Source: Opitutales bacterium (GTDB taxonomy: Bacteria; Verrucomicrobiota; Verrucomicrobiia; Opitutales; UBA953). From it: a stretch of DNA of 41,333 nt. This document shows positions 3,985-35,315 of the stretch, one piece after another; position 1 is the stretch's first letter; each line of letters opens with the position of its first letter. The stretch lies in assembly GCA_044375965.1 (NCBI GenBank), contig JBILLR010000001.1, positions 1-41,333 of the forward strand, written 5' to 3'. Under the pieces are notes generated by a model. The model had not been told where the DNA came from. It ran no database searches and was given only the letters and a program-made list of their open reading frames with translations. A program made the translations under genes and the position numbers.

Positions 3985-6900
3985 ATGGAGGGTCCGATGT
4001 CCGCCCCCCGACCAGACGCGATCCGCCTCCGCGGCGTCCGCCAGAACAACCTGAAGGGCTTCGACGTCGACATCCCCGTCGGCAAGCTGGTCGTGGTCAC
4101 GGGCCTCAGCGGCGCCGGCAAGTCCTCGCTGGTCTTCGACACGCTGCACGCCGAGGGGCAGCGCCGCTACGTCGAGACGTTCAGCCCTTACGTCCGCCAA
4201 TTCCTGGAGCTGCTGCCCTCGCCGGCCCTCGACTCCGCGGAGAACGTGCGTCCGTCCGTCGCGATCAAGCAAGGCAACGCGGTCCGTACGTCGCGGTCGA
4301 CGGTCGGCACGATGACCGAGCTCTGCGACTGGTTCAAAGTGTGGTTCGCCCATCGCGCCGAACTCGTCGATCCGGCCAGCGGACAGGTGATCGTCCCGCG
4401 CGGGCCCGACGCCGCCTGGCAGGATTCGCTCGCCCGCTTCCCGGACCGTTCGCTCTCCCTCGCTTTCGCGGTCGCCAAGCCGGAGTCGCTGGGCTGGCCC
4501 ACCATCGCGGACGAATTCGCCAAAGCGGGCTTCAGCCGCGCCTTCGCCGCCGGGCGCCGCATCCGCCTCACCGAGGACGAGATCCCCGCCGACGCGACGG
4601 AACTGCTCGTCATCCAAGACCGCGTGACGGTCTCCCCCGACCAGGCTTCGCGCTTCCATGAGGCGGCCCTCGCGGCCTTCCGCCTCGGCGGCGCCCGTCT
4701 CCGCCTGCTCGACGACCAAGGCAACGAGCTGTCCCGCTACAGCGAGGCGCTCGAGTCGCCCGTCGACGGGCGGAAATTCCGCCCGGCCTCGCCCGCGCTC
4801 TTCTCCTTCAACTCGCCGGTCGGCGCCTGCCCGGAATGCCGCGGCTTCGGCCGCGTCATCGGACTGGACTGGAATAAGATCATCCCGAATCCCGCGTTGA
4901 CGCTCGCGGAAGGCGCCATCGCGCCGTTCCAAGGGACGGTCTACGGCGAGTCGCAGAAAGACCTCGCGCGGGCCTGCCGCAAGGCGGGCATCCCGCTGGA
5001 CGTGCCCTGGAAGAAGCTCTCGGCGGCCCATCGTAAGTTCATCGAACATGGCGAGCCGGGCTACGTACCGGGCGAATACGATTCGATGTGGTATGGCGTC
5101 CGCGGTTTCTTCCGCTGGCTCGAAGGCACGACCTATAAGATGCACGTGCGCGTGTTCCTCTCGCGCTGGCGGGCCTACGAGTCCTGCCCGCAGTGCCACG
5201 GCCGTCGCTTCCGCGAAGAATCCCTTTTGTGGCGCTGGCAGGGCAAGTCGCTGCCCGAACTCTATTCACTCCCGGTCTCCGACCTGCGCGCGATGCTCGC
5301 GCCGCTGGCACCCAAGGATTCGCGCCATCCCGCCGACCACGCCCTCGAGGCCATCCTCGCGCGCCTCGGCTACCTCGAAGCCGTCGGCCTAGGTTACCTC
5401 GCCCTCGACCGTCTCTCCCGCACGCTCTCCGGCGGCGAAGTGCAACGCGTCAATCTCACGTCGTGCCTGGGCGCCTGCCTCGCCGACACGGTCTTCGTCC
5501 TCGATGAGCCGAGCGTGGGCATGCACGCCCGCGACCTGGCCCGCATGGTCGGCATCCTCCGCAGCCTCGTCGACCAAGGCAACACGGTGGTGGTCGTCGA
5601 ACACGACGAGTCGGTGATGCGCGCCGCGGACTGGCTCATCGAGATCGGACCGCGCCCCGGCGCCGAAGGCGGACATCTGCTCTACCAAGGCGAGCCGAAG
5701 GGCATCCTCAAGGTGAAGGAGTCCGCGACGGGCAACTGGCTCTCCGGCCGCCGCACGCCCGAGACCCGCACCCCGCGCCCGGTCGGTGACACGACGCCGC
5801 GCCTCCGCGTGGCCGGCGCGACGGTCAACAATCTCCGCGACTTCGCCTGCTCGCTGCCGCTCGGACGCCTCGTCGGCCTCTGCGGCGTCTCCGGCTCCGG
5901 CAAGTCGACGCTCCTCCACCAGGTCATCGGCCGGCGCGACCCGGAATCCGGCGACGAGGCGACGGAACTGAAATGGGTCAAGTTCGACCGCGAGCCGGCC
6001 GAAATCGCCCTCGTTGACCAGTCCCCCGCGACGCGCACGCCGCGTTCCAATCCCGCGCTCTACGTGGGCGCCTGGGACGCGATCCGCACCTTGCTCGGCA
6101 ACTCGCCCGAGGCCAAGGCCGCCGGGCTCTCGCCGTCGCACTTCTCCTTCAACGCCGGCGAGGGCCGCTGCGAACGCTGCGGCGGCGCGGGCTGGGAGAC
6201 CGTCGAGATGCAGTTCGTGTCCGACGTCGCCCTGCCCTGCCCCTCCTGCAACGGCAGACGCTTCCGCGACGAGGTGCTGAGCTTCCGATATGACGGAAAG
6301 TCGGTCGGCGACCTGCTCGCGATGTCGGTCACCGAGGCGCGCAAGTTCCTCGGCGAACGCACGCCGGCCTCCGCCCAGCTCGCCTGCCTCGAAGAAGTCG
6401 GCCTCGGCTACCTGTCGATGGGCCAGCCGCTCACGACGCTCTCCGGCGGCGAAGCCCAGCGCCTCAAGCTGGTCCGCTACCTTTCCAGGATCGATGCGCG
6501 CAAGAGCGGCGCGCTCCTGCTCCTCGACGAGCCGACGACCGGACTGCACCGCGAGGACGTGGCTCGCCTGATCGGCCTGCTGCACCGCCTGACCGAGGCC
6601 GGTCACTCGCTCATCGTGGTCGAACATCACCTCGACGTGCTGCAGTCCTGCGACTGGCTCCTCGAGATGGGCCCGGAAGCCGGCCCTGCCGGCGGCCGCC
6701 TCGTCGCCGAAGGCACGCCCGCCGACGTCGCCCGCGCCGGCTCGGTGACGGGACGCTTCCTCGCCCGCGGCGACGACGCCTTCGCCCAGGCCTCGCCCGC
6801 CGCCGGCAGGCCGCGCCCGACCTCGATCTCCCTGCGCGGCGCGCGCGAACACAACCTCAAGGACGTCTCGCTCGAGATCCCGCACGGCTCGCTGACGGTG

Positions 6901-9510
6901 ATGACCGGCGTCTCCGGCTCCGGCAAATCCTCCCTGGCCTTCGACATCCTCTTCGCCGAAGGACAGCGCCGCTTCCTCGAATGCGTCTCGGCCTACGCCC
7001 GCCAGTTCGTCGAACAGCTCCCGAAGCCCGACATCGATTCGCTCACCGGGCTGCCACCCACGGTCGCCATCGAACAGCGCGTGACGCGCGGCTCCGCGAA
7101 ATCGACGGTGGCCACGGTCACCGAGGTCGCCCAATACCTGCGCGTGCTCTTCGCCCGTGCCGGCGTGCTGCATAGCCCGACGACGGGCGAGCCGCTCGAG
7201 GAGATGACGGAAGACGCGGTCGTCCGCCTGGTCGCCAAGCAGGCGAAGGCCTTGAAGAAGGGCTCGCTGCTCGTCGCCGCCCCTCTCGTCCGCGCCCGCA
7301 AGGGCCACCACCGACCGCTCGCCGAATGGGCTGAGTCAAAGGGCCTGCGCCTCCTGCGTTGCGACGGCCGGATGCTCAAGGTCGAAGGCTTCGAAGGGCT
7401 CGACCGTTACTCCGAACACGACGTCGACGCGGTCTTCGGCGAACTCCGCGCCGACGGCCTGATCCGTCTGCCCGACGAGACCGAGGAATCCGGCGAGAAG
7501 GCCCTCCGCACCCTCGTCCGCCAAGCGCTTGCGGCCGGTAAGGACGCCTGCGTGCTTCTCGCCGCCGACGGACGCCAGGTCGCCTACCTTTCGACGTCGC
7601 GCAGCGACCCCGCCACGGGTGAGTCTTTCCCCGAGGTCGACCCGAAGCACCTCTCCTGGAACTCGCCTCGCGGCTGGTGTCCGGACTGCCGCGGCCACGG
7701 CCTCGAAGTCTCGACCTTCTCCTCCGACGAGGAGGAATCCATCAACGAGAACGCCATCGCCGACCGCGTCGGCGACACCGTCTGCCCGACCTGCCACGGC
7801 GAACGCCTGGGTCCGATCGGACGCTCGGTGAGGCTCCTCGGACCGAAGGGCCGCTCGCTCTCCCTGCCCGGACTGCTCCGGCTGCAGCCGGACGAATCCC
7901 TCGCCTTCCTCTCCGGCCTCAAGCTGGAGGCCCGCGAGAAGGCCATCGTCGGCGCGCTGCTCCCCGAGATCGGCGCCCGCCTCCGCTTCCTCGACTCGGT
8001 CGGTCTGGGCTACCTCGCCCTCGACCGCGGAGCCGACACTCTCTCCGGCGGGGAAGCCCAGCGCATCCGCCTCGCGGCGCAGCTCGGCTCGACGCTGTCC
8101 GGCGCGCTCTACGTGCTCGACGAACCGAGCATCGGCCTGCATCCGCGCGACAACGACCGCCTGATCGGTTCGCTCAAAGGCCTGCGCGACCGTGGTAACA
8201 CGGTCCTGGTCGTCGAACACGACGAAGACACCATGCGCGCGGCCGACCTGGTCGTGGACATGGGCCCGGGCGCCGGCGTCCACGGCGGCACGATCGTCGC
8301 GCAAGGCACCGCCGCCGCGCTCGAGAAGCGCGCCGACTCCGTGACGGGACGTTTCCTCAAGGAAGCGATTCCGCATCCGCTCCGCGGTGCGCGCCGCCCC
8401 GTCGCCGGCAAAGGCGCGCCCGCCGCATGGGTCAGCCTCAAGGACGCTTCGCTCCGCAACCTCAAGGGCTTCGACGTCCGGATTCCCGTCGGCCGCCTGA
8501 CCGTCGTCTGCGGCGTCTCCGGCGCCGGCAAGTCCACCCTCGTCACCGACCTGCTCGCACCGGCGATCCGCGCGGCCATCGCGAAGAAGAAGGACGGACT
8601 CACGGGCAAGGAGGCGCTGAGCGCGGTCTCCCATGAAGGGAAGCCGGCCTTCGCCGCGCTCTCCGGACTCAAAGGTTTCCGCCAGCTGGTCGTCGTCGAC
8701 CAGGAACCGATCGGCAAGACGCCGCGTTCGACGCCCGCGACCTACGTCGGCGCCTGGGATCTCATCCGCGAGCGCCTCGCCTCGCTGCCCGAAGCGGCGA
8801 TCCGCGGACACGGGGCGGGCTTCTTCTCCTTCAATACTTCCGGCGGACGCTGCGAAGCCTGCTCCGGCGCGGGCCGCATCAAGCTCGAGATGAGCTTCCT
8901 CCCCGACACCTACGTGCCTTGCGAGGAATGCGCCGGCACCCGCTATGGTTCCGCCGCCAAGGCGATCCGCTGGAACGGGAAGTCCGCCGCCGAACTGCTG
9001 GCGATGACGTTCGAGGAAGCCGCCGCGTTCCTGTCGTTCGACGCGAAGCTGGGCGACCTCTGCGGACTCATGGTGAAGACCGGCCTGGGTTACCTGACGC
9101 TCGGCCAGAGCAGCCCGACGCTCTCGGGCGGCGAAGCCCAGCGCCTCAAGCTCGTCAGCGAACTCGCCCAAGGCCTGCCGACCTTCCGCGAACGCTCGCG
9201 CGGCGAGATCCGGCCCAACCTCTACATCCTCGAGGAACCGACCATCGGGCTGCATCAATCCGACTGCCGCCGTCTCATCGAACTCCTGCACGCGCTCGTC
9301 GACCAAGGCCACACGGTCGTGGTCATCGAGCATCACCCCGACGTGATCGCCGAAGCCGACTGGGTCCTGGAGATCGGGCCCGAAGGCGGTAACGCCGGCG
9401 GCCAGCTCGTCCACGCCGGCGACCCGGAGTCCCTCGCGAAGCTCAAGAAGTCGCCGACCGCCCCCTCGCTGCGCCAGACGCTGGAACGGGGTCGCCTGGC
9501 GAAGGCCTAG
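3985..9510 (+). CDS. uvrA: tandem-duplicated UvrA-like excinuclease ATPase (two complete UvrA units, four ABC modules, 1841 aa)
   Basis: Four Walker A motifs ([36 protein letters not shown]), four LSGGE signatures and four Walker B/H-loop segments. There are paired CxxC zinc modules, and UvrA-specific strings ('AEGQRRY/F', 'VAIEQ', 'RTPRSNPA'). The second unit begins near nt 6820 ('[13 protein letters not shown]'). An alternative start ATG at 3997 is possible. Confidence 0.85.
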
Positions 9511-15613: not shown

Positions 15614-15657
15614 TCTTTGCCAGCCGGCGGGAAAAGCATTGTTTGGTGGCTCACCCC

Positions 15658-16308
15658 ATGAGCACCACCTCCCCCCTCCGCACCACGCTGCTGGCCACGG
15701 CCGCGTTCTTCCTGAGCTCGTACGCCGCCTTCGCGGGCGAAACGATCCAGATGTTCGACGGCAAGTCCCTCGCCGGCTGGAAAGCTTCGACCACCGCCCC
15801 CGAAGGCACCTACAAGGTCGTCGACGGCGTCCTCGAAGTCCGCGGCGGCAAGGCCGACCACCTCTTCTACGTCGGCGCCGACGGCCAGGCCTCTTTCACG
15901 AACTTCGACTTCAAGGCGAAGGTGAAGACCTACGACAAGGCCAATTCTGGCATTTACTTCCACACCCAATATCAGGCCGAGAAGTGGCCGAACCTAGGCT
16001 ATGAATGTCAGGTAAACGCGACCCACGGTGATAAGAAGAAAACCGGCGGCCTTTACGCCGTCCGCGACGTGATGGACACGCCGGCCGCCCCGGACAACGA
16101 GTGGTTCGACTATCGCATCCGCGTGGAAGGCAAGCGCATCCAGATCTGGATCAACGGCAAGCAGACCGTCGACTTCACCCAGCCCGAAGACTGGACTCCG
16201 CCCAAAGGCATGCCCGGCCGCAAGCTAGGCTCCGGCACCTTCGCCATCCAGGCCCACGACCCGGGCTGCAAGGTCGACTACAAGGACCTCGTCGTCGAGC
16301 GCCTCTGA
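15658..16308 (+). CDS. secreted DUF1080 (3-keto-disaccharide hydrolase-like) domain protein
   Basis: Signal peptide 'LLATAAFFLSSYAAFAG'. Typical DUF1080 jelly-roll strings are 'FDGKSLAGWK', 'NFDFKAKV', 'NSGIYFH', 'GYECQV', 'NEWFDYRIRVEGKRIQIWINGK' and 'GTFAIQAHD'. The ATG at 15658 is preferred over the track's TTG at 15643. Confidence 0.8.
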   Translation: MSTTSPLRTTLLATAAFFLSSYAAFAGETIQMFDGKSLAGWKASTTAPEGTYKVVDGVLEVRGGKADHLFYVGADGQASFTNFDFKAKVKTYDKANSGIYFHTQYQAEKWPNLGYECQVNATHGDKKKTGGLYAVRDVMDTPAAPDNEWFDYRIRVEGKRIQIWINGKQTVDFTQPEDWTPPKGMPGRKLGSGTFAIQAHDPGCKVDYKDLVVERL

Positions 16309-19077: not shown

Positions 19078-20442
19078 TCAGGCGTCCACGTCGGTCTGGG
19101 CGGAGCGTCGGAACTTCCAGCCCATCACCAGCGAGACCAGGATGAGGCCCGTCGCCAAGGCGATCCAGATGCCCGCGGCGCCCAGGCCCCAGCGTCCGAC
19201 GGGCAGGCCGAAGAGTCGGAAGCCGGCCGGGAAAGCCAGGGCCAGCGCCAGCGGCAGGCAAAAGAGCCAGTAGACGATGAAGACGCTCCACGATGCCCAT
19301 GCGGCCCGGTTGACCGAGCGCAGCAGGTAAGCCGCCACGACCTGCACGCCGTCGAAGGGCGCCCAGATGGCCGCGAAGATGAGCAGGCTCGAGGCCAGCG
19401 CGGCGGTCTCGGTCCCGGCCACGCCATACGTGTCCATGAGCAACGGCCGCAGGAGGATCATGGCGAGTCCGTAAGCCCCCATCATGACGCCGCCGAGGAT
19501 CATGGCGCCGAGACCGACGGCCTGTACCTTGCGCGCATCCTTGGCTCCATAAGCCTCGCCGACGCGGATGCCCGCGGCGATGCCGAGTCCGAGCGGAAGC
19601 ATGAACGCGGCGGAGGCGGTGCTGATGGCGACCTGGTGCGCGGCCTGCGCGGTGGCGTTGATCCAGCCCGCCATGACCGGCACGACCGCGAAGATGCCGA
19701 CTTCGCTGAGGCTATGCAGCCCCGCCGGCCAGCCGGTGGCGAGCAGGCGACGGAAGACGGCCATCTGCAGTCCGTCCGCCCAGCGCACCTCACCACGGCC
19801 CGGCGTAAGCCAGAGGCCGATGAGCATCAGGATGCGGGAGACGAGCGTGGCCCAGCCGGCTCCCGCGAGACCCAAGGCCGGAAAGCCCCAGTTCCCGAAC
19901 ATCCACAGCCAGTTGAAGAAGACGTTGGCGAGGATGCCAGCCGCCAGCCAGGCCAGCGAGATCCACGGCTGATGCTGCGAATCGCGATGCCCGCGCAGCG
20001 CATGGAAGGCCAGGCCGGGCACCATCGCCCAGGCCATGATGACGAAGAAGTCATGCGTCTCGGCGGTGACCTGGGGCGAGGAACCGAGCAGCGGCAGGAA
20101 GCGTGCCGCCCAATGGGTGAGCCCGGCGGTGACCACGCCCAGCACGAGCGCGAGCGCCATGCCGTGCCTCAGGATGGCAGGCGAAGATTCCGCGACGCCG
20201 GCGCCGTTGTCTTGCGACTGATAGACCGCGATGGCTCCGACCACGCCGATGCCGAAGACGTAAGGGATGTAGTTGAGGTTCGAGGCCAGGGCCGACGCCG
20301 CGAGCGCGGTCTCGCCGAGGTGACCCGCCATGGCGACGTCCACGACGAACATGAGTCCGTAGCCGAGCATCCCGAGCATGATCGGGACGGCCAGCTTAAG
20401 CGTGGGTCCGAGTTCCGAGCGGATGGAAGGGGCGGCGGCCAA
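19078..20442 (-). CDS. MATE-family multidrug/metabolite efflux transporter
   Basis: 454 aa with about 12 TM segments. The N-terminus 'LKLAVPIMLGMLGYGLMFVVDVAMAGHLGETALAASALA' is typical of NorM/DinF-type MATE proteins. The only available start is the TTG at 20442. Confidence 0.85.
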   Translation of the reverse strand: MAAAPSIRSELGPTLKLAVPIMLGMLGYGLMFVVDVAMAGHLGETALAASALASNLNYIPYVFGIGVVGAIAVYQSQDNGAGVAESSPAILRHGMALALVLGVVTAGLTHWAARFLPLLGSSPQVTAETHDFFVIMAWAMVPGLAFHALRGHRDSQHQPWISLAWLAAGILANVFFNWLWMFGNWGFPALGLAGAGWATLVSRILMLIGLWLTPGRGEVRWADGLQMAVFRRLLATGWPAGLHSLSEVGIFAVVPVMAGWINATAQAAHQVAISTASAAFMLPLGLGIAAGIRVGEAYGAKDARKVQAVGLGAMILGGVMMGAYGLAMILLRPLLMDTYGVAGTETAALASSLLIFAAIWAPFDGVQVVAAYLLRSVNRAAWASWSVFIVYWLFCLPLALALAFPAGFRLFGLPVGRWGLGAAGIWIALATGLILVSLVMGWKFRRSAQTDVDA

Positions 20443-20478: not shown

Positions 20479-21960
20479 TCAGTTCTTCGGGATGCGGTTC
20501 AGCGTGTAATACGCGTCCGCATGGTCGAGCGGTTCCCCGGCGGCCGAACGGATGCCGTCCGCATGGAGCTCGTGGATGTAAAGTTCCCGGCGGCCGTCGA
20601 CCTTGAGCCGCACGCTGAGGCCGTCCGCGGCGACCTGGGCCGAGACGATGGCGTTCGGCGCGGCCTGAATCTCATCGCTGCCATAGGCTCCCGAATAGAA
20701 AAGTGTGTAGTTGCTCATGCGGTAGGAGGCGAGGTCCCCGGCTCGGGCGACGTCGACGGGCTTGGTGAAGACGAGTTCGAAGCCGTCCGGCCTGGCCTTC
20801 ATCTCCTTGATGGAGAAGGGCACGGTGCCGTTGTAGCGGAGCCGCTGCAGGCCGTAGGCCTTGGTGCCGAGCGACGACCATCCACGGCTGGTCATCCCGA
20901 CCATGAGCGAACCATCCGGGGCGAAGTTGAGTCGGACGATGCCGGAGGCGAAACCGCCGACGAACGGGAAGCAGGCGCCCTGATACTCGCCGTCGACCTT
21001 CTCCATGAAGACGCGGCTGATCTTGGCGTCGGTGAACTCGGCCACGAGCATCTGGCCGTCGAAGGGCCCGAACTTTCCGCCGGCGTCGCACGTGACGAGG
21101 TCGGTGCCGCTGCGTCCGACTTTGTTATAAGGCATCCAGACCGCCGGGGGACGCATCTCGGGCAGGGCTTTCATGGCTTCCGGATAAGGAACCTTCTCGG
21201 GGACCTTGGCGGAGAGCTTGAGCGGAGATTCCGGACGGTCCTGCGAGGCGATGCCTTCCGGGTTCAGGAAGAAGGCGCCCTTGCGGAGGTGATAGATCGG
21301 GGTGGTCGGGATCCACGTGCCCTGCTGGTCGACGCAGAACATGTCGCCGGCGAGGTTGGTGCCGAGTCCGCACGGCGAGCGCATGCCGGCCGCCATGGGC
21401 ACGAACTTGCCGTCCTTATCGAGGACGCCACCCCAGCCGCGCCAAGGGGCCTTGTTGTCGGAGTGGTCGCCCATGTCCAGATTGAGGGTGACCCATAGCT
21501 GACCCAGGCCGTCGCGCTTGGGTCCGTAGGCGTAGCCGTGATAGGCGCCGGAGACGTTCCAACCCGCGCCCGCGGTGAGGTATTCGTCGGCGACGCCGTC
21601 GCCGTCGGTGTCGCGCAGACGCGTGGTCTCGGTGCGTTGGGTGACGAGCAGGTCCTGGCCGTCGCGCAGGAGGCCGAGCGGCTCATGCAGGCCCGAGGCG
21701 AAGAGCTGGTAGCTGACCTTGTCGGGCTTGGGGGCGAGGACGCCGTCGAGCAGCCAGACCTCGCCCTTGCGGATGGTGAGCGCGAGCTTGCCGTCGGCGG
21801 TCCAATCCATGCCGCTGACTTCGAGCGCGAGGCCGTCGCCCGGCTTCCAATCCTTGGCGCGCGTATCGGCGGCGGTGCTTGCCGTCAGGATGTCGGCGAT
21901 GTCGTAAGACGCCCCGGAAAGCGAAGCGGCGGCGAGAAGGGCGGCGAAGGTGGCTTTCAT
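20479..21960 (-). CDS. exported beta-propeller protein resembling glucose/sorbosone-dehydrogenase-like ('PVC membrane-bound dehydrogenase domain') proteins, with C-terminal Ig-like domain
   Basis: The ATG at 21960 overlaps the upstream stop (ATGA). Signal peptide 'MKATFAALLAAASLSGA'. Blade-like repeats are present, with 'DTDGDGVADEY', 'GMRSPCGLGTN' and 'APDGSLMVGMTSRGW'. The family call is by resemblance only. Confidence 0.65.
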   Translation of the reverse strand: MKATFAALLAAASLSGASYDIADILTASTAADTRAKDWKPGDGLALEVSGMDWTADGKLALTIRKGEVWLLDGVLAPKPDKVSYQLFASGLHEPLGLLRDGQDLLVTQRTETTRLRDTDGDGVADEYLTAGAGWNVSGAYHGYAYGPKRDGLGQLWVTLNLDMGDHSDNKAPWRGWGGVLDKDGKFVPMAAGMRSPCGLGTNLAGDMFCVDQQGTWIPTTPIYHLRKGAFFLNPEGIASQDRPESPLKLSAKVPEKVPYPEAMKALPEMRPPAVWMPYNKVGRSGTDLVTCDAGGKFGPFDGQMLVAEFTDAKISRVFMEKVDGEYQGACFPFVGGFASGIVRLNFAPDGSLMVGMTSRGWSSLGTKAYGLQRLRYNGTVPFSIKEMKARPDGFELVFTKPVDVARAGDLASYRMSNYTLFYSGAYGSDEIQAAPNAIVSAQVAADGLSVRLKVDGRRELYIHELHADGIRSAAGEPLDHADAYYTLNRIPKN

Positions 21961-24068
21961 TTCCAGAGGTAGGTGAAGACGCGACGGCCTTCGGCTGTGG
22001 ATTCCTTCACGTCGACGACCATCCCCGCGGGATGATGGATCGTGGGCCGGAAATCCGGCGTGGGCGCCCAGGTGACGGTGCGGCGCAGGCCGTTCTCGAG
22101 GCCTTCGAAAGCCTCTGCGACCTTCACGCCGCCCTGTTCGTTCAGGAACGTGGGGTTTCCCTTGGCATCGAGACGATAGCCGAGGAAACGGCCGGTGGGC
22201 TTGGGCCAGGCGACGACCTGTTCGCCGATGGGCTTCTCGAACGTCGGGAAGCGCGAGAACCATGTCAGGTAGGCGTCGAAGAAACGTCCCTTCCACGCAA
22301 GGCCGGGGCCGCCCTTGTCGCCGTCATACGCGAGGTGCACGCCGGTCGGGAAGCCGACGAGGATCGCGCGCACGCCTACGCCGTCGAGGAACGCACGCTG
22401 GACCACGGGACGGTCCTTGGGCACGATCTCGAACTCACCGTTGCGGTTCTGCGGGAAGCCTTCCGGCTCCCCGTTGGCGCTCTCGGCGAACTTGTAGATC
22501 GCGGCGATCTGCTTGTCGGTGTCGCCGCCGAGGATGGTCGGGTTGAACGATTTGCCTCCCGGCCAGAACGATGGCATCAGCGTCCCCGGACGATACCCTG
22601 CCGGGTTGATGAGATACTCGCGGAGCCAGCCTTCCTGAAGGCGCGCGGCGATGTTGCTGATGTCGGGTCCTTGGATGCCCAACGAGGGACGATCACCCCA
22701 ACGGTGGCAGGTGATGCACCCTGCGCCCCCTTGCGTGCCCAGCAGTTTGCGCCCGGCGGTGTCGTCGCCGCCTTCGAACTTCAAGGCCGTCCGCGCATCG
22801 GCGACGCCGAGGAGCTTGGCGAGGTCCGCCGTGGCGGCGCCGAACTGCGGCATCTTGGTCTTCAGGTAAGGACGGATCCGGGTCTCATCCCCCTTATAAT
22901 GGCTCGTGAACAGCTCGGCGCCTTTGGCGTCGGCGCGCGGAGCAAGCACCTTGGCCAGCCACTCGGGGCGCAGCTTGCCGCCGATGCCGGTCAAGGGCGG
23001 CGGATAGCGGCCGGTGTCGCCGAGGTTATGGTCACCTTGGAAGTAGGGCTTACGCGCGGCGTCCGGACCGCCCAGACCATCGCGCTCATGGCAGGCGACG
23101 CAGTTGAGGGCGTGCAAAGTGAGGTCGGCGGCGAGCTTGGGCGAGGCGACTTCGTCCTTCCTCGCGAGGAAGAGCTTCAACGAGGCGCGCTGGGCCTCGC
23201 TGAGCGCATAGCGCGGGCCGTTGGCATGACCGGCGTCGAGACAGCCCTCTTCGTTCTTCTTCAGCGCCACCGGCTTGGCCGCGGCGTCCTTCGGCAGGTC
23301 GTGACAGGCGGCGCACCGGGCGGCGATGACGGCCTTGCGGCCGGCGATCGCGAGGTTCTTGTCGGCGACGACGGAGACCACCGGGTTGTCCAGGCGTCCG
23401 TCGCTGCCCTGGAACTCCAGAAGGTAGCCGGCGATGTCGATGGCATCCTGCTTGTCCATGGACGTCTTGGGCATGCGTCCGTCGGTCCGCACCTTGAGCG
23501 GGTCGAGGATGAAGGCGCTGAGGCTATCGAGGCTGTACTTCGCCTTGAGATCGCCGAGAGCGACGCTTCGGTGCGTGAACTCGGAAGCCTTGGGCGCGCC
23601 TTCCGGCGGCACGAAATCCTGGCCAGGCGCATGGCACGCGACGCAGCCAAGCGTATTGAAAAGGTCGCCTCCGCGACGTCCGTTCACATGCAGGATCTTG
23701 GCCGGAGCCTTGGCGGCGGCCTTCGGCTTGAGCGAGGCGAGGTAATGTTCGATCGCGACGAGCGCCTGGGCGTCAGCCTTCGCCAGCACCTGCGGCATGA
23801 CGGTGCCGGGGTGGGCCGACGCGGGATCAGCGATGAATTTTTTGAGCCACTCGGAGCGGACACGCTGGGTCACGGTCGCAAGGGCGGGGCCACGCAGGGC
23901 CGGCAGGCCGGTCTCGCCACCGTGGCAATTGACGCAGCCCAGCTCGTTATAAAGCAGCCGACCCCCTTCGGCCGTCGGCGTGGCGGCATGGAAGCGCTCG
24001 AACCCGGTGACCAAAGGTTCGGCATGCAGCGCGACGGCGCCGAGCAGGATGGCGAAACGCAGCATCAT
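21957..24068 (-). CDS. exported multihaem c-type cytochrome (5 CxxCH motifs) with C-terminal domain of unknown function
   Basis: The ATG at 24068 overlaps the upstream stop (ATGA). Signal peptide 'MMLRFAILLGAVALHA'. Haem motifs are CVNCH, CVACH, CAACH, CVACH and CITCH, with candidate Met ligands in 'GTVMP', 'DGRMPK', 'KTKMPQF' and 'GTLMPSFW'. Confidence 0.8.
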   Translation of the reverse strand: MMLRFAILLGAVALHAEPLVTGFERFHAATPTAEGGRLLYNELGCVNCHGGETGLPALRGPALATVTQRVRSEWLKKFIADPASAHPGTVMPQVLAKADAQALVAIEHYLASLKPKAAAKAPAKILHVNGRRGGDLFNTLGCVACHAPGQDFVPPEGAPKASEFTHRSVALGDLKAKYSLDSLSAFILDPLKVRTDGRMPKTSMDKQDAIDIAGYLLEFQGSDGRLDNPVVSVVADKNLAIAGRKAVIAARCAACHDLPKDAAAKPVALKKNEEGCLDAGHANGPRYALSEAQRASLKLFLARKDEVASPKLAADLTLHALNCVACHERDGLGGPDAARKPYFQGDHNLGDTGRYPPPLTGIGGKLRPEWLAKVLAPRADAKGAELFTSHYKGDETRIRPYLKTKMPQFGAATADLAKLLGVADARTALKFEGGDDTAGRKLLGTQGGAGCITCHRWGDRPSLGIQGPDISNIAARLQEGWLREYLINPAGYRPGTLMPSFWPGGKSFNPTILGGDTDKQIAAIYKFAESANGEPEGFPQNRNGEFEIVPKDRPVVQRAFLDGVGVRAILVGFPTGVHLAYDGDKGGPGLAWKGRFFDAYLTWFSRFPTFEKPIGEQVVAWPKPTGRFLGYRLDAKGNPTFLNEQGGVKVAEAFEGLENGLRRTVTWAPTPDFRPTIHHPAGMVVDVKESTAEGRRVFTYLWK

Positions 24069-24991
24069 GCGGTCTCGCGGACGCACTTCTCGACGTAAGC
24101 GCGCGACTCGTTGATGAGCGCGGTGACCTCGGCGGTGGTCGGCATGACGGGGATGCCGCGCGGCGTGGGATGCATGAACAGCTCCACCTGGCCGTTGAAA
24201 CGGATGTCGCGGAGGGCCTTCACGATCGGGCGGTAGTCGAGCTTGCCGCGGCCGGCCATCTGGCGGAGCTCTTCTTCCTTCGAGGCCTTCTTGAAGATGC
24301 CCTCGGAGTGTTCCTGGAAATACATGAACGGCAGGTTGCGCGCGCCGAGGTCGCGGAGCAGCGCCGGGATCTGGTCGGCCCACTCGTGCAGGTGGTGGGG
24401 CGCGAAAGCCACGCCCAGCGCGGGCGACTTGTTCAGCTCGGCGAAGGCGCGGAGGGAGTCCGGATGATGCAGGGCTTGGTTCGAGTGGTTCTCGATCGCG
24501 ATGCGCACGCCCAGCTCCTCGGCCTTGGCGGCATGCGGCTTCATCTCTTCGAGGAACTTGGCGATGGCCGCCTTGGCCGCGGCGCCGGAGGGATTCTTCG
24601 GTCCGGTGCTGCCGCAGACGACGGTCGTGCCGCCGTGCCGCTTCACCCAGGCCATCTCCTCCTGGAGCTTGAAAGGCCCGAGGGGATAGCGGGTGCTCAC
24701 GCCGACCTTCACGCCATGCTTCTTCAGCAGGGCCGCGAAGGCTTCGTCGCCGAGCGCGGCGGCCTGCTCACGCTGGTCGCCATGCACCTTGCACCAGATG
24801 TCGAGCGACTCGCTGCCGGTCTTGGCGACCTCGGGCAGCACCTCGGCGAGCGGGGCGTAGCCGTACATCGCAGATGACAGCACGTAGCGCAGGCGGAAAG
24901 GCTCCGCGGCTTGGGCCCGCAGAGCGGGCGCGGTGGCGACCGCGGCGGCGGCGAGGCCGGCGGAACGAAGGAAGTCGCGACGGGATAGCAT
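24065..24991 (-). CDS. TAT-exported xylose-isomerase-like TIM-barrel protein (sugar phosphate isomerase/epimerase family)
   Basis: ATG at 24991. Twin-arginine leader 'MLSRRDFLRSAGLAAAAVATAPALRAQA'. 'RIAIENHS' and the overall pattern are typical of the AP_endonuc_2/TIM-barrel family. Confidence 0.8.
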   Translation of the reverse strand: MLSRRDFLRSAGLAAAAVATAPALRAQAAEPFRLRYVLSSAMYGYAPLAEVLPEVAKTGSESLDIWCKVHGDQREQAAALGDEAFAALLKKHGVKVGVSTRYPLGPFKLQEEMAWVKRHGGTTVVCGSTGPKNPSGAAAKAAIAKFLEEMKPHAAKAEELGVRIAIENHSNQALHHPDSLRAFAELNKSPALGVAFAPHHLHEWADQIPALLRDLGARNLPFMYFQEHSEGIFKKASKEEELRQMAGRGKLDYRPIVKALRDIRFNGQVELFMHPTPRGIPVMPTTAEVTALINESRAYVEKCVRETA

Positions 24992-24995
24992 GAAC

Positions 24996-25685
24996 TTACT
25001 TCTTGGCGACTTCGGCCTCGAGCATCTTGATCCACGGGCCGACGAACGCGCCATTGTCGTGGAAGGTGCGGCCGCTGACCATGTGGCGGTCGATGACGAC
25101 GGGGGCGTTGACGAAGATGCCGCCGCAGACCTCGAGGTCGAACTTGCACTTCGGTACGGTGGCCATGCGCAGGCCCTTCACGATGCCGGCGCGGGCGGGG
25201 ATCTCGACGCCGTGGCAGACGCTCATCATCGGCTTCTTGTTCTCCCAGAACCAGCGCGTGGCGGCGAGCAGGGCCTCGTCCTCGCGGATATACTCCGGAG
25301 CGCGGCCGCCGCTGAAGAAGATACCGACGTATTCCTCCGGCTTGATGTCCTTGAAGGCGATGTCCGAGTTGATCGTGTAGCCCTCCCACTCCTTGGTGAT
25401 CGTCCAGCCGGGCTTCACCTCGTGAAGGACGGTCTGGTAGACGCGCTTCTCGGGCGTCGCGAACACGGGCTGGAAGCCGGCTTCCTGCAGGCGGTAGACC
25501 GGATACATCGTGTCGAGCAGCTCGGTGGCGTCGCCGATGACGATCAGCACCTTGGGCTTCTTGGCGTTCTCGGGCTTGTCGGCGCCCGAAGAGATCGAGG
25601 CCTGGTTCTTGTTGTCGATGAGCCCGGCGGCGACGGCGAACGAGCACAGGCCGAGCAGGCCGACGGTGAGGAGGCGGAGTTTCAT
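24996..25685 (-). CDS. exported DJ-1/PfpI-family protein
   Basis: ATG at 25685. Signal peptide 'MKLRLLTVGLLGLCSFAVAAG'. Typical PfpI strings are 'KVLIVIGDATELLD', 'FFSGGRAPEY', the nucleophile elbow 'MMSVCHGVEI' and 'VVIDRHMVSGRTFHD'. Confidence 0.8.
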   Translation of the reverse strand: MKLRLLTVGLLGLCSFAVAAGLIDNKNQASISSGADKPENAKKPKVLIVIGDATELLDTMYPVYRLQEAGFQPVFATPEKRVYQTVLHEVKPGWTITKEWEGYTINSDIAFKDIKPEEYVGIFFSGGRAPEYIREDEALLAATRWFWENKKPMMSVCHGVEIPARAGIVKGLRMATVPKCKFDLEVCGGIFVNAPVVIDRHMVSGRTFHDNGAFVGPWIKMLEAEVAKK

Positions 25686-25768
25686 GGGGGTAGCAGGACT
25701 ATATCCTTTCTTGCCCGCAAAGTCATTACAGGTATGATGCACTAAATGTAAGGTTTTTGGTCAGACCC

Positions 25769-26932
25769 ATGCCCTCTCCCTCCCATCGTCGCGCGCCGCG
25801 GGTCGCCCTCCTCATCGAGACCACCCGCACGTATACGCGCGAACTCCTCGCCGGCGTCCGCAGCTACGTGGCGGCGCACGGCCCTTGGTCGACCTACCTC
25901 GAACTCCGCGCCCTGGACTCCTCACCCCCGACCTGGCTGAAGGACTGGGACGGCGACGGCATCCTCACCCGCACCTTCAGCGCGGAGACCTCCAAACTTG
26001 TCGCCGCCACCGGCCTGCCCGCGGTCGAGCTGCGTTCCACGCACTTCGCCGGCGGCCGCCCCTTCGTGGGCTGCGACAACGAGGACATCGGCCGCATGGT
26101 GGCGGAGCACTTCTATGAGCGGGGCTTCCGGCACTTCGCCGCCTACAGTCAGCGCAACGAGCAGTTCTTCGTCGAGCGCGTGGCGAACTTCAAGAAAGTC
26201 GTCCGTACATACGGACTTCGGTGCCATGAACTCCCCGAGGACCACCCGGAACGCGCCCCGGACTGGGAGCAGAGCCAGGCCCGCCTGATCCAATGGATCG
26301 CGCAGCTGCCTAAGCCGGTGGGCATCTTCGCCTCGACCGACCAGCTCGGCGTGCGCCTGCTCGAGGCCTGCCAGACCGCCGGCGTGGCGGTGCCGGAAGA
26401 GGTCGCCGTCGTCGGCGCCGAGAACGAGGAGACGCTCTGCAGTTTCACCACCCCGCCGCTTTCCAGCGTGCGCTACGACGGTCATGCCGTCGGCTTCGCC
26501 GCCGCGGAACTGCTTGACCGGCTCATGCGCGGGAAGTCCTCCCGGGCCAAGCCGACGCTCATCGCCCCGAAAGGCATCGAGGTGCGCGGATCTTCCGGCG
26601 AGCGCGTGATCGGCGATCGGCTGGTGGCCCGGGCGGTCGCCCTCATCCGCGAAGGCGCCGCGCGCGGCCTCGACGTCAACGAACTCGCCGCGAAACTGGG
26701 CGCTTCGCGCAGCACCCTCGACCGTCGCATGAAGGCGGCCTTGAAGCGCTCGCCGAAGGACGAGATCCTGCGCGTGCGCTTCGCGGAGGTGGAACGTCTC
26801 CTGCGCGAGACGAACCTGACGATCGACCTCATCGCCGAACAGACCGGCTTCACGCACAGCCATTACCTGCAGGCGGCTTTCAAGGCCCGGACGAAGCTTA
26901 CGCCGGGCAAGTTCCGCCGGGCCCAGGCCTGA
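25769..26932 (+). CDS. XylR-like transcriptional regulator (periplasmic-binding-protein-like sensor domain + AraC-type HTH)
   Basis: 'RVALLIETTRTYTRELLAGV', 'WDGDGILTR' and 'GVAVPEEVAVVGAENEE' indicate a LacI/PBP-like fold. The C-terminal 'IDLIAEQTGFTHSHYLQAAFKARTKLTPGKFR' is an AraC HTH. The ATG at 25769 is preferred over the track's TTG at 25757. Confidence 0.85.
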   Translation: MPSPSHRRAPRVALLIETTRTYTRELLAGVRSYVAAHGPWSTYLELRALDSSPPTWLKDWDGDGILTRTFSAETSKLVAATGLPAVELRSTHFAGGRPFVGCDNEDIGRMVAEHFYERGFRHFAAYSQRNEQFFVERVANFKKVVRTYGLRCHELPEDHPERAPDWEQSQARLIQWIAQLPKPVGIFASTDQLGVRLLEACQTAGVAVPEEVAVVGAENEETLCSFTTPPLSSVRYDGHAVGFAAAELLDRLMRGKSSRAKPTLIAPKGIEVRGSSGERVIGDRLVARAVALIREGAARGLDVNELAAKLGASRSTLDRRMKAALKRSPKDEILRVRFAEVERLLRETNLTIDLIAEQTGFTHSHYLQAAFKARTKLTPGKFRRAQA

Positions 26933-32244: not shown

Positions 32245-33390
32245 ATGCTTTCCCCTGAAGCGCTGACCTACGGCACTCTGCTGATCGCCGGCTTCCTGGC
32301 CCTTCGCCGCAATCGTCGCACGGGTCTCGCCCTTCGTCGCCAATACGGCGTCGTCGAAGGCCGGCCGGTGCAGCTCCACACCCTCACCAACGCCCGTGGC
32401 ATGGAAGTCTCGGTCTGCGATTATGGCGCTACCCTGACCTCGATCCGTGTCCCCGACGTCCACGGCCGCCTCGGCGAAGTGACCCTGGGCCTGCGCTCGC
32501 TCGAAGACTACGTCGCCGGCAACCCGTTCCTCGGCAGCACCGTCGGCCGCTACGCCAACCGCCTCGCCGATGGCAAGCTGACCCTCGACGGACAGACCAT
32601 CGCGCTCGCCCAGAACAACAACGGCAACCACCTCCACGGCGGCGTGCGCGGACTCGACAAGCGCGTCTGGTCTTCCGAAGCCGTGCGCACGGAGTCTGCT
32701 TCGGCTGTCCGCTTCACCTACGTGAGTCCCGCCGGCGAAGAAGGCTACCCCGGCACGCTCAGCGTCACGGTCACCTACGCCTTGGCCGACGAATCCGACG
32801 AGCTCACGATCGATTTCACGGCGACCACCGACGCCCCGACGGCGTGCAACCTGACGAACCACGTGTTCTTCAACCTGGCCGGCCAAGGCAGCGTCCTCGA
32901 TCATCAGGTCACGCTGCGCGCCGACCAGCTCGTGCCGGTCAGCCCCGCGCTCATCCCGACGGGCGAACTCATGGACGTGAGCGGTACGCCGTTCGACTTC
33001 CGCAGCCCGCACGCCATCGGCGAGCGCATCGGTGCCCCGCATGATCAGCTCCGCCGCGCCCGCGGTTACGATCACTGCTACGTGCTCGGTCCGGACAAGA
33101 TGCTCAAGCCCGCCGCATTCGTGAGCGAGCCCACCAGCGGTCGTACGCTCGAAGTCCTCACCGACGCCCCGGGCCTGCAGTTCTATACCGGCAACTTCCT
33201 CGCCGGCACCGTCCAGGGCCGCTGGGCCAAGCCCTTCGCCTTCCGCCAAGGCTTCTGCCTCGAGCCCGGGCTCTTCCCCGATTCGCCGAACCAGCCGGAG
33301 TTCCCTCGCCTCGGCTACCCGAGCGGCATCCTGCGCCCAGGCGAACGGTACTCTCAGAAGCTTGTCTTCCGCTTCGGTGTCTGCCGGTAA
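32245..33390 (+). CDS. galM: aldose 1-epimerase (mutarotase)
   Basis: Classic GalM motifs: 'GSTVGRYANRLADGKLTLDG', 'NNNGNHLHGG', 'SPAGEEGYPGTLSVTVTY', 'TNHVFFNLAG', 'GYDHCYVL' and 'GFCLEPGLFPDSPNQPEFP'. The conserved core begins near aa 40, so the alternative start GTG 32368 ('MQLHTLTN...') is possible. Confidence 0.9.
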   Translation: MLSPEALTYGTLLIAGFLALRRNRRTGLALRRQYGVVEGRPVQLHTLTNARGMEVSVCDYGATLTSIRVPDVHGRLGEVTLGLRSLEDYVAGNPFLGSTVGRYANRLADGKLTLDGQTIALAQNNNGNHLHGGVRGLDKRVWSSEAVRTESASAVRFTYVSPAGEEGYPGTLSVTVTYALADESDELTIDFTATTDAPTACNLTNHVFFNLAGQGSVLDHQVTLRADQLVPVSPALIPTGELMDVSGTPFDFRSPHAIGERIGAPHDQLRRARGYDHCYVLGPDKMLKPAAFVSEPTSGRTLEVLTDAPGLQFYTGNFLAGTVQGRWAKPFAFRQGFCLEPGLFPDSPNQPEFPRLGYPSGILRPGERYSQKLVFRFGVCR

Positions 33391-33624: not shown

Positions 33625-34632
33625 TTACCTCGCGACTTCCGCGCGGGCCTGGGCGAGGACGGCGGCGAGCTTCACTTCGACGCCGCCCCGGCGCTTGCTC
33701 TCGTCGGCGGCTTCCATGAACGCATAAAGCTCGAGGGTTTCTTCGGGAGAGACCGGTGCCTTGCCGGTGCGGAACATCTTCACGATCGCTTCGAGCAAGA
33801 CCTCATAACCGTCGAACTTGCCGATGGCGGCTTCGCCCTTCTCACCGACGGCTTTGCCGCCATAAGGTCCGCCCTTCGCCTTACGGTCTGCTTCGCGGAA
33901 GATGCCCACGCGTCCGTCGCCCCAGCTGCCGGTGACCTGGATGAATCCTTCCGGAGTCTTGTCGCGCCTTACCGAGACGCAACCCGTGCCCATGACGGCG
34001 AAGAGGCTTTCGCAGCCATGGACGCCATACCAGTAGAGATCGGGGTGGTGCGACTCAAGGCTCGCGGGACTGGTCGCATAGGCTGACCTCACCTTGCCAA
34101 TCGAGCCTTGGGCGACGGCCTGCGTGCCGGCGGCGAAGCGGAGCGACGACGAACAGAAATAGGTCACGCCGGCCTTGCGCGCGGCCTCCTGGATGCGGAG
34201 GACGTCGGCGAGCGAGCCCGCGATGGGCTTGTCGATGAAGACGGGCTTACCGGCCTTCAGCACCGGCAGAAGCTGCTCGAAATGCACGCGGCCGTCGTTG
34301 GACTCCAGGAGCACGAAATCCACCTGCGCGCAGAGCTGTTCGATGGAACCCACGATCTCGACGCCCATGGCCTTGAGTTTCATCGTGTATTCCGGGACGC
34401 GCGAGGTGCTCTCCGGGATGTCCTTGCTGCCCTGCGCGAAAGCGTGCGTCACGCGGAAGCCCGCGAACTTGGCGGCGTCGGCCGGATTCTTCGGGCCTTG
34501 GTTGAGCACTGTCGTGAAAGCCACGACGTGCGAGGTGTCCAAGCCGATGATACCGACCCTCTTCGGCGCTTCTTTGGCGTACAGGGACGTGATCAAGACG
34601 AGCGCGCAGGCGAAGAGACGGGGTAAGCTCAT
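33625..34632 (-). CDS. secreted Gfo/Idh/MocA-family oxidoreductase
   Basis: ATG at 34632. Signal peptide 'MSLPRLFACALVLITSLYA'. The Rossmann start is 'RVGIIGLDTSHVVAF', with 'DFVLLESNDGRVHFEQLLPVLKAGKPVFIDKPIA' typical of the family. The ORF extension to 35139 overlaps the LysE gene. Confidence 0.85.
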   Translation of the reverse strand: MSLPRLFACALVLITSLYAKEAPKRVGIIGLDTSHVVAFTTVLNQGPKNPADAAKFAGFRVTHAFAQGSKDIPESTSRVPEYTMKLKAMGVEIVGSIEQLCAQVDFVLLESNDGRVHFEQLLPVLKAGKPVFIDKPIAGSLADVLRIQEAARKAGVTYFCSSSLRFAAGTQAVAQGSIGKVRSAYATSPASLESHHPDLYWYGVHGCESLFAVMGTGCVSVRRDKTPEGFIQVTGSWGDGRVGIFREADRKAKGGPYGGKAVGEKGEAAIGKFDGYEVLLEAIVKMFRTGKAPVSPEETLELYAFMEAADESKRRGGVEVKLAAVLAQARAEVAR

Positions 34633-34682
34633 GCCTATGGTTAACTTCGCGCGGTCCGGCTGACAAGCCCGCGGGTCGACGG

Positions 34683-35315
34683 TTAATGCGAAGCTTCGAG
34701 CAATTGCCAGGCCCGCCAGGCCATCAGCAGGCCGAGCGCCGACCAGAGTACGCCGAGCGCCCGATCGACCCCGCGGATCGTCGCCGGGTTCTTCAGAAGC
34801 ACGCGCAGACGATCGCCGACCAAGGCGTAAGAACTCATCACGCCGACCTCCGCGCCCAGGGTGCAGAGCAAGAATACGCCCGTGGTCGACCAAGCGAAGG
34901 CATCGGACGGCACGCCCGCGGCCTGGATGATGATCAGGAAGAACGGGATCGTCTTCGGATTCGAAAAGTTCACCCAAGCCCCGCGCAGGAAAAGCCGGCC
35001 GGCTCCGCCTTCGGATCCGGAGGATTCCGGCAGGCTCGAACGCGGTCGGGCGAGATGACCGACGCCTAGATAGAGGAAGTAAGCCATCCCGGCCGACGCG
35101 ACGACCGTCAGCGCCTGCGGCGCCTGGAGCGCCAACCACCGTGTCCCATAGAGGGCCAGGAAGAGGTGCGGCGTCTCGCCCACGGCGAGGCCCAGCGTAT
35201 GCCAGAAGGCGCGGCGCTGGCCGTAACGGAGTGACGTCTCAATGGTCGACAGCGCCGCCGGCCCGGGCGAGAGGCTCGCGGTCAGGCAGGCGGCGATGAG
35301 CAGACCGACGTTCAT
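34683..35315 (-). CDS. LysE/RhtB-family amino-acid exporter
   Basis: 210 aa with about 6 TM segments. The N-terminal 'LSPGPAALSTIETSLRYGQRRAF' is typical of the LysE family. Confidence 0.85.
   Translation of the reverse strand: MNVGLLIAACLTASLSPGPAALSTIETSLRYGQRRAFWHTLGLAVGETPHLFLALYGTRWLALQAPQALTVVASAGMAYFLYLGVGHLARPRSSLPESSGSEGGAGRLFLRGAWVNFSNPKTIPFFLIIIQAAGVPSDAFAWSTTGVFLLCTLGAEVGVMSSYALVGDRLRVLLKNPATIRGVDRALGVLWSALGLLMAWRAWQLLEASH

Follow-up and report, generated by a model that had tools for sequence, protein, structure and literature searches.

What is the work of an operon that sets a beta-propeller protein and a five-haem cytochrome beside a TIM barrel and a DJ-1/PfpI protein? The question is raised by 41,333 nucleotides from an Opitutales bacterium (GenBank assembly GCA_044375965.1, contig JBILLR010000001.1; "the window" below means this whole stretch), for which a sequence-only reading had proposed periplasmic oxidation of a sugar or glycoside, with electrons passing to the respiratory chain. 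Synteny, a redox fold, conserved leaders and fusion proteins support that proposal. The propeller and the pentahaem cytochrome very likely constitute a periplasmic, cytochrome-c-linked sugar or glycoside dehydrogenase. The explanation that best accounts for the whole is a two-subunit dehydrogenase acting with the TIM barrel in a respiratory variant of glycoside cleavage, to which we give an even chance of being right. What the analysis shows directly is the structure of the genes, their export signals and conservation, the propeller fold, the domain fusions and a conserved operator; the redox role of the propeller, the electron flow, the carbohydrate substrate, C3 oxidation followed by elimination and the role of the DJ-1 protein are what we infer from the evidence below.

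The operon and its conservation

Four minus-strand genes, all intact open reading frames (ORFs), make up the operon:

24996-25685, minus strand: DJ-1/PfpI protein, 229 amino acids (aa)
24065-24991, minus strand: xylose-isomerase-like TIM barrel, 308 aa
21957-24068, minus strand: pentahaem c-type cytochrome, 703 aa
20479-21960, minus strand: beta-propeller protein, 493 aa

The tight packing described by the sequence-only reading was present at every junction: the stop of the TIM barrel gene and the start of the cytochrome gene overlap in an ATGA at 24065-24068 (within GCATGATG), the stop of the cytochrome gene and the start of the propeller gene overlap in another at 21957-21960 (within AAATGAAA), and the DJ-1 and TIM barrel genes are separated by 4 nt (24992-24995). 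The motifs that it quoted (SVCHG, SRRDFLRSAG, DTDGDGVADEY and five CxxCH) were all found, and Pfam and NCBIfam models confirmed its family assignments (DJ-1_PfpI, AP_endonuc_2 with a TAT signal, Cytochrom_C, and in the flanking genes MatE and Peripla_BP_3 with HTH_18). Its cytochrome and propeller genes stood, but not their lengths of 704 and 494 aa, in which the stop codon had been counted; the true values are 703 and 493 aa. The G+C content of the operon region was uniform with its flanks; in this 67% G+C genome, the large plus-strand ORFs that overlap the operon are shadow ORFs.

A genome scan yielded 80 loci, all from Verrucomicrobiota (Opitutales, Chthoniobacterales, Limisphaerales and Verrucomicrobiales), and each neighbour was counted only in loci whose contig was long enough for it. 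The cytochrome gene was directly upstream of the propeller gene in 59/59 loci, and the propeller neighbourhood included the TIM barrel gene in 48/52 and the DJ-1 gene in 41/47. Cultured Chthoniobacter flavus Ellin428 has the order regulator, DJ-1, TIM barrel, cytochrome (CfE428DRAFT_3207) and propeller. Because gene order is kept across four verrucomicrobial orders, the arrangement is more than a chance one; synteny, which the sequence-only reading had named as a point on which it could fail, extends as far as C. flavus. Among the loci examined we found no recurrent neighbour beyond the core genes.

The DJ-1 gene is dispensable in several loci (L063, L077, L064/65 and L047), and carbohydrate-related genes have been inserted at the module in apparently independent events, with a sulfatase between TIM barrel and cytochrome in L018, a sulfatase in place of DJ-1 in L063, and a sulfatase-GH32 fusion together with an unknown TAT protein in L064/L065. 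The sulfatase-type genes could be a hint of sulfated substrates. In three Chthoniobacterales loci (L047, L052 and L059), the gene immediately upstream of the cytochrome gene encodes a secreted FAD_oxidored (PF12831) protein. Genes 85-93% identical to those of the window operon were also recovered from records titled 'Polynucleobacter meluiroseus', 'uncultured Klebsiella sp.' and 'Akkermansia muciniphila' (L010, L017, L032 and L034); these contigs are probably mislabelled or mis-binned metagenome-assembled genomes.

Propeller, cytochrome and their fused relatives

The propeller protein, predicted to be secreted and with a conserved short leader, comprises a propeller of the six-bladed type (residues ~19-376) and a C-terminal beta-sandwich (~380-493), and both appear in its AlphaFold2 (AF2) model (pLDDT 82.7, pTM 0.86). 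Searches of the PDB gave no match, either with the single sequence or with a 43-sequence profile. When the model was searched with Foldseek, the top matches were pyrroloquinoline quinone (PQQ) sugar dehydrogenases (entries 2ism, 1cq1, 3a9g and 6jt5), the proteins ranked first being TTHA0570, soluble glucose dehydrogenase (sGDH), PaeASD, CcPDH (family AA12) and Streptomyces coelicolor Adh; E-values against PQQ dehydrogenases were 6e-11 to 1e-8, target-normalised TM-scores 0.58-0.74 and identities 13-16%. A redox fold was the second point on which the sequence-only reading had offered to be judged, and the best structural matches were indeed PQQ glucose or aldose dehydrogenases, not lectins or hydrolases. 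A lectin, hydrolase or lactonase reading was rejected, as SMP30, LRE and NHL proteins rank below the PQQ dehydrogenases and fusions to cytochrome c and cupredoxin occur.

Three propeller motifs are referred to below:

21580-21612, minus strand: DTDGDGVADEY, a DxDxDG-type loop
21520-21543, minus strand: YHGYAYGP, with the putative general-base His141
21367-21387, minus strand: GMRSPCG, with Arg194

A profile of 131 diverse representatives aligned with Escherichia coli YliI over 312 columns (hhalign, probability 87%, E 4.6e-7); a shallow orthologue profile failed to align, and the diverse one was needed. In this alignment the general-base His of GNHFGGRL is matched by His141, the Arg of RNPQG by Arg194, and the EHG/EQG position by Gln213. 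Conservation was counted over 132 family members at 35-54% identity, in which R194 and G214 are invariant (132/132 each), followed by W361 (130/132), Q213 (129/132), R343 (119/132), H141 (114/132), R359 (109/132) and R174 (105/132). Since these residues are both aligned and conserved, the propeller appears to retain an sGDH-like catalytic pocket, in which Q213, R343, R359 and R174 could bind the carboxylates of PQQ. The invariant Cys197 and Cys209 were considered for a disulfide or cofactor role, which was rejected because no co-variation between the two was seen in the wider family.

More than 6,000 proteins match the propeller, the best 120 at 70-96% identity. An exhaustive search of 1.84 billion representatives returned ~3,500 relatives at E<=1e-3, 839 of them at E<=1e-30, and many are multidomain. 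In P0301, P0363, P0384 and P0348, a homologue of the cytochrome (residues ~30-620, E 1e-51 to 3e-85) is followed in the same polypeptide by a homologue of the propeller, so that the domain order is the gene order of the operon. On the strength of these fusions we read cytochrome and propeller as two halves of one enzyme, and the suggestion that the operon is a split version of fused proteins is borne out. A Pfam census of 61 multidomain relatives found GSDH in 24 (E<1e-3, best 3.8e-9), 3keto-disac_hyd (DUF1080) in 17, cytochrome c in 8, ThuA in 6, plastocyanin/azurin or cupredoxin in 3-4 and an AP_endonuc_2 TIM barrel in 2, with PA14 and Laminin_G_3 also present. Fusion to two unrelated periplasmic electron carriers argues strongly that the propeller relatives are redox enzymes. 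Plasmids of Bacteroidota (Runella, Chondrinema) carry a DUF1080 gene immediately upstream of a propeller-cytochrome or propeller-cupredoxin fusion, with genes for fucosidase, rhamnosidase, SMP30 lactonase and SusC nearby. As relatives are fused or adjacent to DUF1080, ThuA and TIM barrels, the family is tied to keto-glycoside processing.

The cytochrome matched Pfam Cytochrom_C in three stretches (5.8e-28, 98.5 bits) and has a predicted signal peptide (residues 1-16), a short leader that is conserved. Its haem motifs and C-terminal domain are located as follows:

23922-23936, minus strand: CxxCH at residue 45
23631-23645, minus strand: CxxCH at residue 142
23301-23315, minus strand: CxxCH at residue 252
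23088-23102, minus strand: CxxCH at residue 323
22704-22718, minus strand: CxxCH at residue 451
21960-22433, minus strand: conserved beta-rich C-terminal domain, residues ~546-703

All five CxxCH and four Met-Pro motifs are invariant in 40 orthologues, and by its predicted haem sites the protein belongs to the multihaem c-type cytochromes. Its AF2 model (pLDDT 68.8, moderate) has a helical haem region and a beta domain made of residues 546-701; this C-terminal domain had no Pfam match and no significant Foldseek match (best were FABP-like barrels, TM 0.35). The fifth haem domain (residues 449-524, window ~22497-22724) is SoxX-like and scores 71.9 bits against TIGR04485, where the cut-off is 61. 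A SoxX or sulfur-oxidation reading was rejected, the match covering one domain of a 703-aa pentahaem protein, with no sox context in the loci examined. As the score exceeds an equivalog cut-off, an automated pipeline could mis-annotate the cytochrome as SoxX. The window cytochrome also carries a 17-aa insertion, APRADAKGAELFTSHYKGD (residues ~376-394, window ~22890-22950), in which AF2 confidence is very low and which is missing from most orthologues (703-aa vs 686-aa forms).

Substrate, pathway and competing explanations

The propeller-cytochrome enzyme probably acts on carbohydrate. The secreted propeller, very distantly related to the PQQ-type soluble sugar dehydrogenases, would oxidise a carbohydrate or glycoside and pass electrons to the dedicated pentahaem cytochrome c and from there to the aerobic respiratory chain. 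The TAT-exported, metal-dependent TIM barrel would act on the keto-sugar product, most likely as a keto-glycoside 1,2-lyase or an isomerase, and the DJ-1/PfpI protein would be an accessory enzyme for a reactive carbonyl product, exported in this Opitutales clade only. The XylR-like regulator would switch the operon on with a sugar-like ligand, via a conserved operator. The module would then break glycosidic bonds by the stepwise oxidation-elimination-hydration ('3-keto-glycoside') route in a form coupled to respiration, and for this pathway, with the TIM barrel as partner, our confidence ranges from tentative to evenly balanced.

The TIM barrel scored 62.1 bits against Pfam AP_endonuc_2 (PF01261; cut-off 31.1, 8.6e-17). 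Its proposed twin-arginine translocation (TAT) leader, MLSRRDFLRSAG (nt 24905-24991), includes SRRDFLR and matched both TIGR01409 (19.2 vs a cut-off of 16.7) and Pfam TAT_signal; R4 and R5 are invariant in nine orthologues, as are E167, H199/H200, E227 and H274. The protein thus fits the class of TAT-exported enzymes, its export being predicted, as the sequence-only reading had held. Export leaders were also among the points on which that reading could have fallen, and sequence conservation preserves them in TIM barrel, cytochrome and propeller. Compared with all PDB sequences, the nine-orthologue profile matched only TM0416 and D-tagatose 3-epimerase, weakly (E 6e-3 to 2e-2).

The DJ-1 protein matched Pfam DJ-1_PfpI (PF01965) at 97.4 bits (cut-off 26.6, 1e-27) and fell below the cut-off of the NCBIfam PfpI subfamily TIGR01382 (111 vs 139 bits). 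It is PfpI/YhbO-like with a Cys-His pair, Cys157 being followed by His158 in the nucleophile elbow SVCHG (nt 25209-25223), and its closest solved relatives are Arabidopsis DJ-1D (glyoxalase-III-type, 2e-35) and PfpI/PH1704. It was considered as a possible analogue of ThuA, since DJ-1/PfpI and ThuA are both class-I glutamine-amidotransferase-like folds; a profile-profile comparison of the two gave no match. In the window the protein has a predicted Sec-type signal peptide (residues 1-20, nt 25626-25685) followed by a ~25-aa linker; when L001-L044 were compared with L048-L081, the two occurred together only within the Opitutales clade to which the window belongs. In a sister clade (L029, L032, L033, L039 and L044) the linker is kept but the hydrophobic core was lost or never there, and in all orthologues from Chthoniobacterales, Limisphaerales, Verrucomicrobiales and Opitutaceae the N-terminus lies just a few residues ahead of the fold; to judge from their N-termini, these leaderless proteins should be cytoplasmic. 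Within a single order, then, the DJ-1 enzyme seems to have changed its side of the membrane. The description of the operon as fully exported holds for the window as a recent, clade-specific state, not as an ancestral one; likewise, signal peptide and SVCHG elbow are both present here, but the former is not a general trait. With the leader confined to one clade and orthologues elsewhere looking cytoplasmic, the idea of DJ-1 as a periplasmic dicarbonyl scavenger is weakened.

CcPDH is a quinohaemoprotein pyranose dehydrogenase whose cytochrome is a fused domain. The window propeller shares the fold, the His and the RNPQG Arg of the PQQ soluble sugar dehydrogenases (Acinetobacter calcoaceticus sGDH, E. 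coli YliI/Asd, Pyrobaculum PaeASD, Thermus TTHA0570 and CcPDH), and both are periplasmic or secreted, as predicted for the propeller. Unlike them, it has no GSDH match, a partly conserved PQQ/Ca site, 13-16% identity to them and an extra C-terminal beta-sandwich, and its partner is a 703-aa pentahaem cytochrome with a beta domain of its own. PQQ dehydrogenases are likewise cytochrome-linked, bacterial ones having adjacent cytochrome c4/c551 genes, and Voutsinos et al. described PQQ six-bladed propellers beside c-type cytochromes and inside carbohydrate-active enzyme (CAZyme) clusters, with a nine-residue PQQ signature in CcPDH numbering (bioRxiv 10.64898/2026.07.10.737718). The nearest sequence family is that of the CxxCH proteins typical of Planctomycetota-Verrucomicrobiota-Chlamydiota (PVC) bacteria (TIGR02604 'Piru_Ver_Nterm' + HEAT + TIGR02603; DUF7133), which share the DxDxDG loop and propeller core and follow the same logic of propeller plus c-type haem. 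Those proteins have one C-terminal haem domain and HEAT repeats, whereas the window has a separate five-haem subunit without HEAT repeats, and the family itself has no established mechanism. One member, Lac161_ORF7 (AGW45552; TIGR02604 + HEAT + cytochrome c), from a Chthoniobacter-like cosmid, cleaves lactose in vitro with a Km of 1.8 mM and was read by Cheng et al. as a new beta-galactosidase family (PMC5342196); an oxidative mechanism would also fit.

Glycoside cleavage by C3 oxidation, 1,2-elimination and hydration was described by Nasseri et al., who found DUF1080 proteins to be alpha-lyases and hydratases and remarked that cytochromes might re-oxidise the oxidant (bioRxiv 10.1101/2024.03.25.586180). 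Liu et al. described the periplasmic BT2156-2160 system, and LacABC and ThuAB as cytochrome-c-dependent 3-keto-glycoside dehydrogenases (PMC8121099). The window module resembles Bacteroides BT2156-BT2160 and Alistipes AL1-3 in its predicted periplasmic location and TIM-barrel 'sugar phosphate isomerase' partner, and LacABC/ThuAB in the proposed delivery of electrons to cytochrome c (PMC8121099; bioRxiv 10.1101/2024.03.25.586180); the DUF1080 and ThuA proteins of keto-glycoside systems are those found with propeller relatives. In the known systems, the oxidant is a Gfo/Idh/MocA NAD enzyme or an FAD GMC enzyme, whereas here it would be a beta-propeller. Unlike known lyase systems, the window TIM barrel has no detectable similarity to solved structures beyond superfamily level; the operon lacks a DUF1080 gene (one lies 4 kb away), and its DJ-1/PfpI protein has no counterpart in keto-glycoside systems. 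We found no characterisation of TIGR02604, DUF7133 or this gene combination in the literature searched, in line with the earlier statement that no characterised system has this composition.

Several results weigh against this account. Propellers from different orders are at least 70% identical, which suggests that the substrate is a housekeeping-like one, and sGDH-type enzymes oxidise C1, not C3. The propeller scored below the curated cut-off of TIGR02604 (29.1 vs 122.2 bits) and below that of DUF7133 (22.1 vs 27 bits), which all 43 orthologues matched weakly (best 3.5e-8). On sequence grounds it is a divergent relative and not a formal member of TIGR02604/DUF7133, and the TIGR02604-type relationship suggested earlier survives as nearest sequence family but not at the formal thresholds. 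Its likeness to soluble glucose dehydrogenases similarly stands by fold but not at family level: Pfam GSDH (PF07995) did not match the window propeller and matched 2/43 orthologues at E 0.11. In the propeller the PQQ site is only partly recognisable: the Asn (N229) of RNPQG is replaced by Ser and the Gln (Q231) by Cys, and only one of two blade-6 arginines is present, so that PQQ is no more than a candidate cofactor. The TIM barrel keeps the first Glu and one His of the TM0416 metal site and lacks the Asp and last Glu, and no similarity to solved lyases was detected in the PDB profile search, in which the presence of AL1/BT1 is unconfirmed. DJ-1 would be cytoplasmic in most lineages, and a locus for glycan utilisation would not usually have a conserved core devoid of DUF1080, transporter, kinase and glycoside hydrolase.

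The likeliest rival is a classical sGDH/YliI-type aldose dehydrogenase, which would oxidise C1 of free sugars to lactones for energy, with the TIM barrel as an isomerase or epimerase and no glycosidic cleavage. The proteins structurally closest to the propeller all oxidise free sugars at C1, or at C2/C3, YliI aligns with it at the catalytic His and Arg, profile searches linked the TIM barrel to no solved structures but ketose 3-epimerases, and the absence of DUF1080 from the core is as this rival would have it; PQQ six-bladed propellers beside c-type cytochromes have also been proposed to oxidise reducing ends (bioRxiv 10.64898/2026.07.10.737718). Yet the module has no lactonase, the GSDH family match is very weak, and relatives are recurrently fused or adjacent to the DUF1080, ThuA and TIM barrel proteins of keto-glycoside processing; we consider C1 oxidation unlikely.

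Less likely again is a role in carbonyl stress or keto-sugar salvage, in which osones (glucosone), Amadori-type or dicarbonyl sugars would be converted, with DJ-1 as the central glyoxalase/deglycase-type enzyme. CcPDH, a structural match of the propeller, prefers 2-keto-D-glucose, which favours salvage, as do a core without transporter, kinase or glycoside hydrolase, the unusually high sequence conservation between orders, and DJ-1 itself, which is the first gene, is kept in most loci and is closest to the glyoxalase-III-type DJ-1D. Against this, DJ-1 is dispensable in the loci named above, detoxification would be a costly use of a cytochrome with five haems, the XylR type to which the regulator belongs is a sugar-catabolic one, and the fusion partners of relatives point to glycoside cleavage. 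A non-carbohydrate periplasmic substrate (alcohol, aldehyde, sulfur compound or metal), with an incidental link to sugar enzymes, is improbable: the fifth haem domain passes the SoxX cut-off, the cofactor and substrate pocket are uncharacterised and the family is only remotely related to sugar dehydrogenases, but the SoxX match spans one 78-residue domain, the loci examined hold neither SoxA/Y/Z/B genes nor a recurrent non-core neighbour, and the TIM barrel, the XylR-like regulator, the DUF1080/ThuA/PA14 fusions and the CAZyme neighbours point to carbohydrates.

Control, flanking genes and wider significance

The regulator, control region and flanking genes are placed as follows:

25769-26932, plus strand: XylR-like regulator, 387 aa from ATG 25769, with a periplasmic-binding-protein-type sugar sensor and an AraC HTH
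25686-25768: divergent control region, 83 bp, with promoter-like hexamers on both strands (promoter scan)
19078-20442, minus strand: MATE efflux transporter, 454 aa, TTG start, 36 nt downstream of the propeller gene
15643-16308, plus strand: secreted DUF1080 (3-keto-disaccharide-hydrolase-family) protein, 221 aa, Pfam 8e-40

The regulator matched Peripla_BP_3 (6e-34), HTH_18 (5e-18) and, weakly, PBP1_XylR, and a divergent regulator accompanies the propeller in 29/46 loci. Its longest ORF begins at TTG 25757; the start is most likely ATG 25769, which fits the 83 bp earlier given for the distance between regulator and operon. Within the control region, a conserved 13-mer, TGACCAAAAACCT (the TGACSAAAAACCT element), lies on the minus strand at 25751-25763. 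It occurs once in the window, where 0.01 occurrences are expected by chance, and exactly once in each of 22 related loci that span four orders and include C. flavus; it sits between regulator and DJ-1 in every locus in which its position was compared with mapped gene coordinates. In the window TGCATCATACCTGTAATGAC follows ~20 nt downstream on the minus strand, and a second conserved block after the 13-mer, TGCAYCATA...TGAC, overlaps the -35 region of the operon promoter. This is good evidence of an operator kept across the loci and of co-regulation by the divergent XylR-like regulator, the 13-mer being the candidate site.

The MATE protein matched Pfam MatE (3e-37) and TIGR00797 (above cut-off). 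No terminator-like site was found in the 36-nt gap after the propeller gene, and in the window the transporter is probably co-transcribed with the operon. After the propeller, close Opitutales loci have a MATE gene in 38/39 cases and distant loci in 0/30, and MATE was rejected as a module component; the short spacing noted by the sequence-only reading is therefore real, but membership is clade-specific. The DUF1080 gene, ~4 kb beyond the propeller, stands alone and is syntenic in all close Opitutales loci, not in distant ones; its product could supply the hydratase or alpha-lyase step absent from the operon. An aldose 1-epimerase gene (32245-33390, plus strand) and a Gfo/Idh/MocA oxidoreductase gene (33625-35139, minus strand; its long Arg-rich N-terminus is probably mis-started) lie a few kb away and indicate further sugar-oxidation capacity nearby. 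Elsewhere in the window, a 1841-aa ORF (3985-9510, plus strand) encodes UvrA DNA-binding and UvrA interaction domains and several ABC ATPase/P-loop regions; at ~2x the length of a standard UvrA, it has the look of a UvrA-like protein that was duplicated or fused.

In freshwater, soil and sea, Verrucomicrobiota and other PVC bacteria rank among the main degraders of complex and sulfated glycans, and uncharacterised 'dehydrogenase + CxxCH', DUF1080, ThuA and TAT-exported TIM-barrel genes abound in their genomes. Propellers of the DUF7133/TIGR02604 type have for two decades been annotated in them only as 'putative membrane-bound dehydrogenase'. Our broadest claim, which we regard as rather doubtful, is that these propellers are an unrecognised class of respiratory glycoside dehydrogenases. 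In Verrucomicrobiota, periplasmic glycosides would be oxidised by a dedicated complex of propeller and pentahaem cytochrome, with a cofactor site that might differ from the canonical PQQ/Ca one; a lyase would then break the glycosidic bonds without hydrolysis, and the respiratory chain would conserve the electrons. That the compact, phylum-wide module is a cytochrome-linked system for oxidative glycoside cleavage is directly testable, because it is present in cultured C. flavus Ellin428. If it is one, a very large dark family (>6,000 close relatives, and ~3,500 representative clusters at 50% identity) would gain a function, the recently discovered oxidation-elimination-hydration pathway would extend from gut Bacteroides to aerobic environmental bacteria, and glycan cleavage would prove to be coupled directly to respiration.

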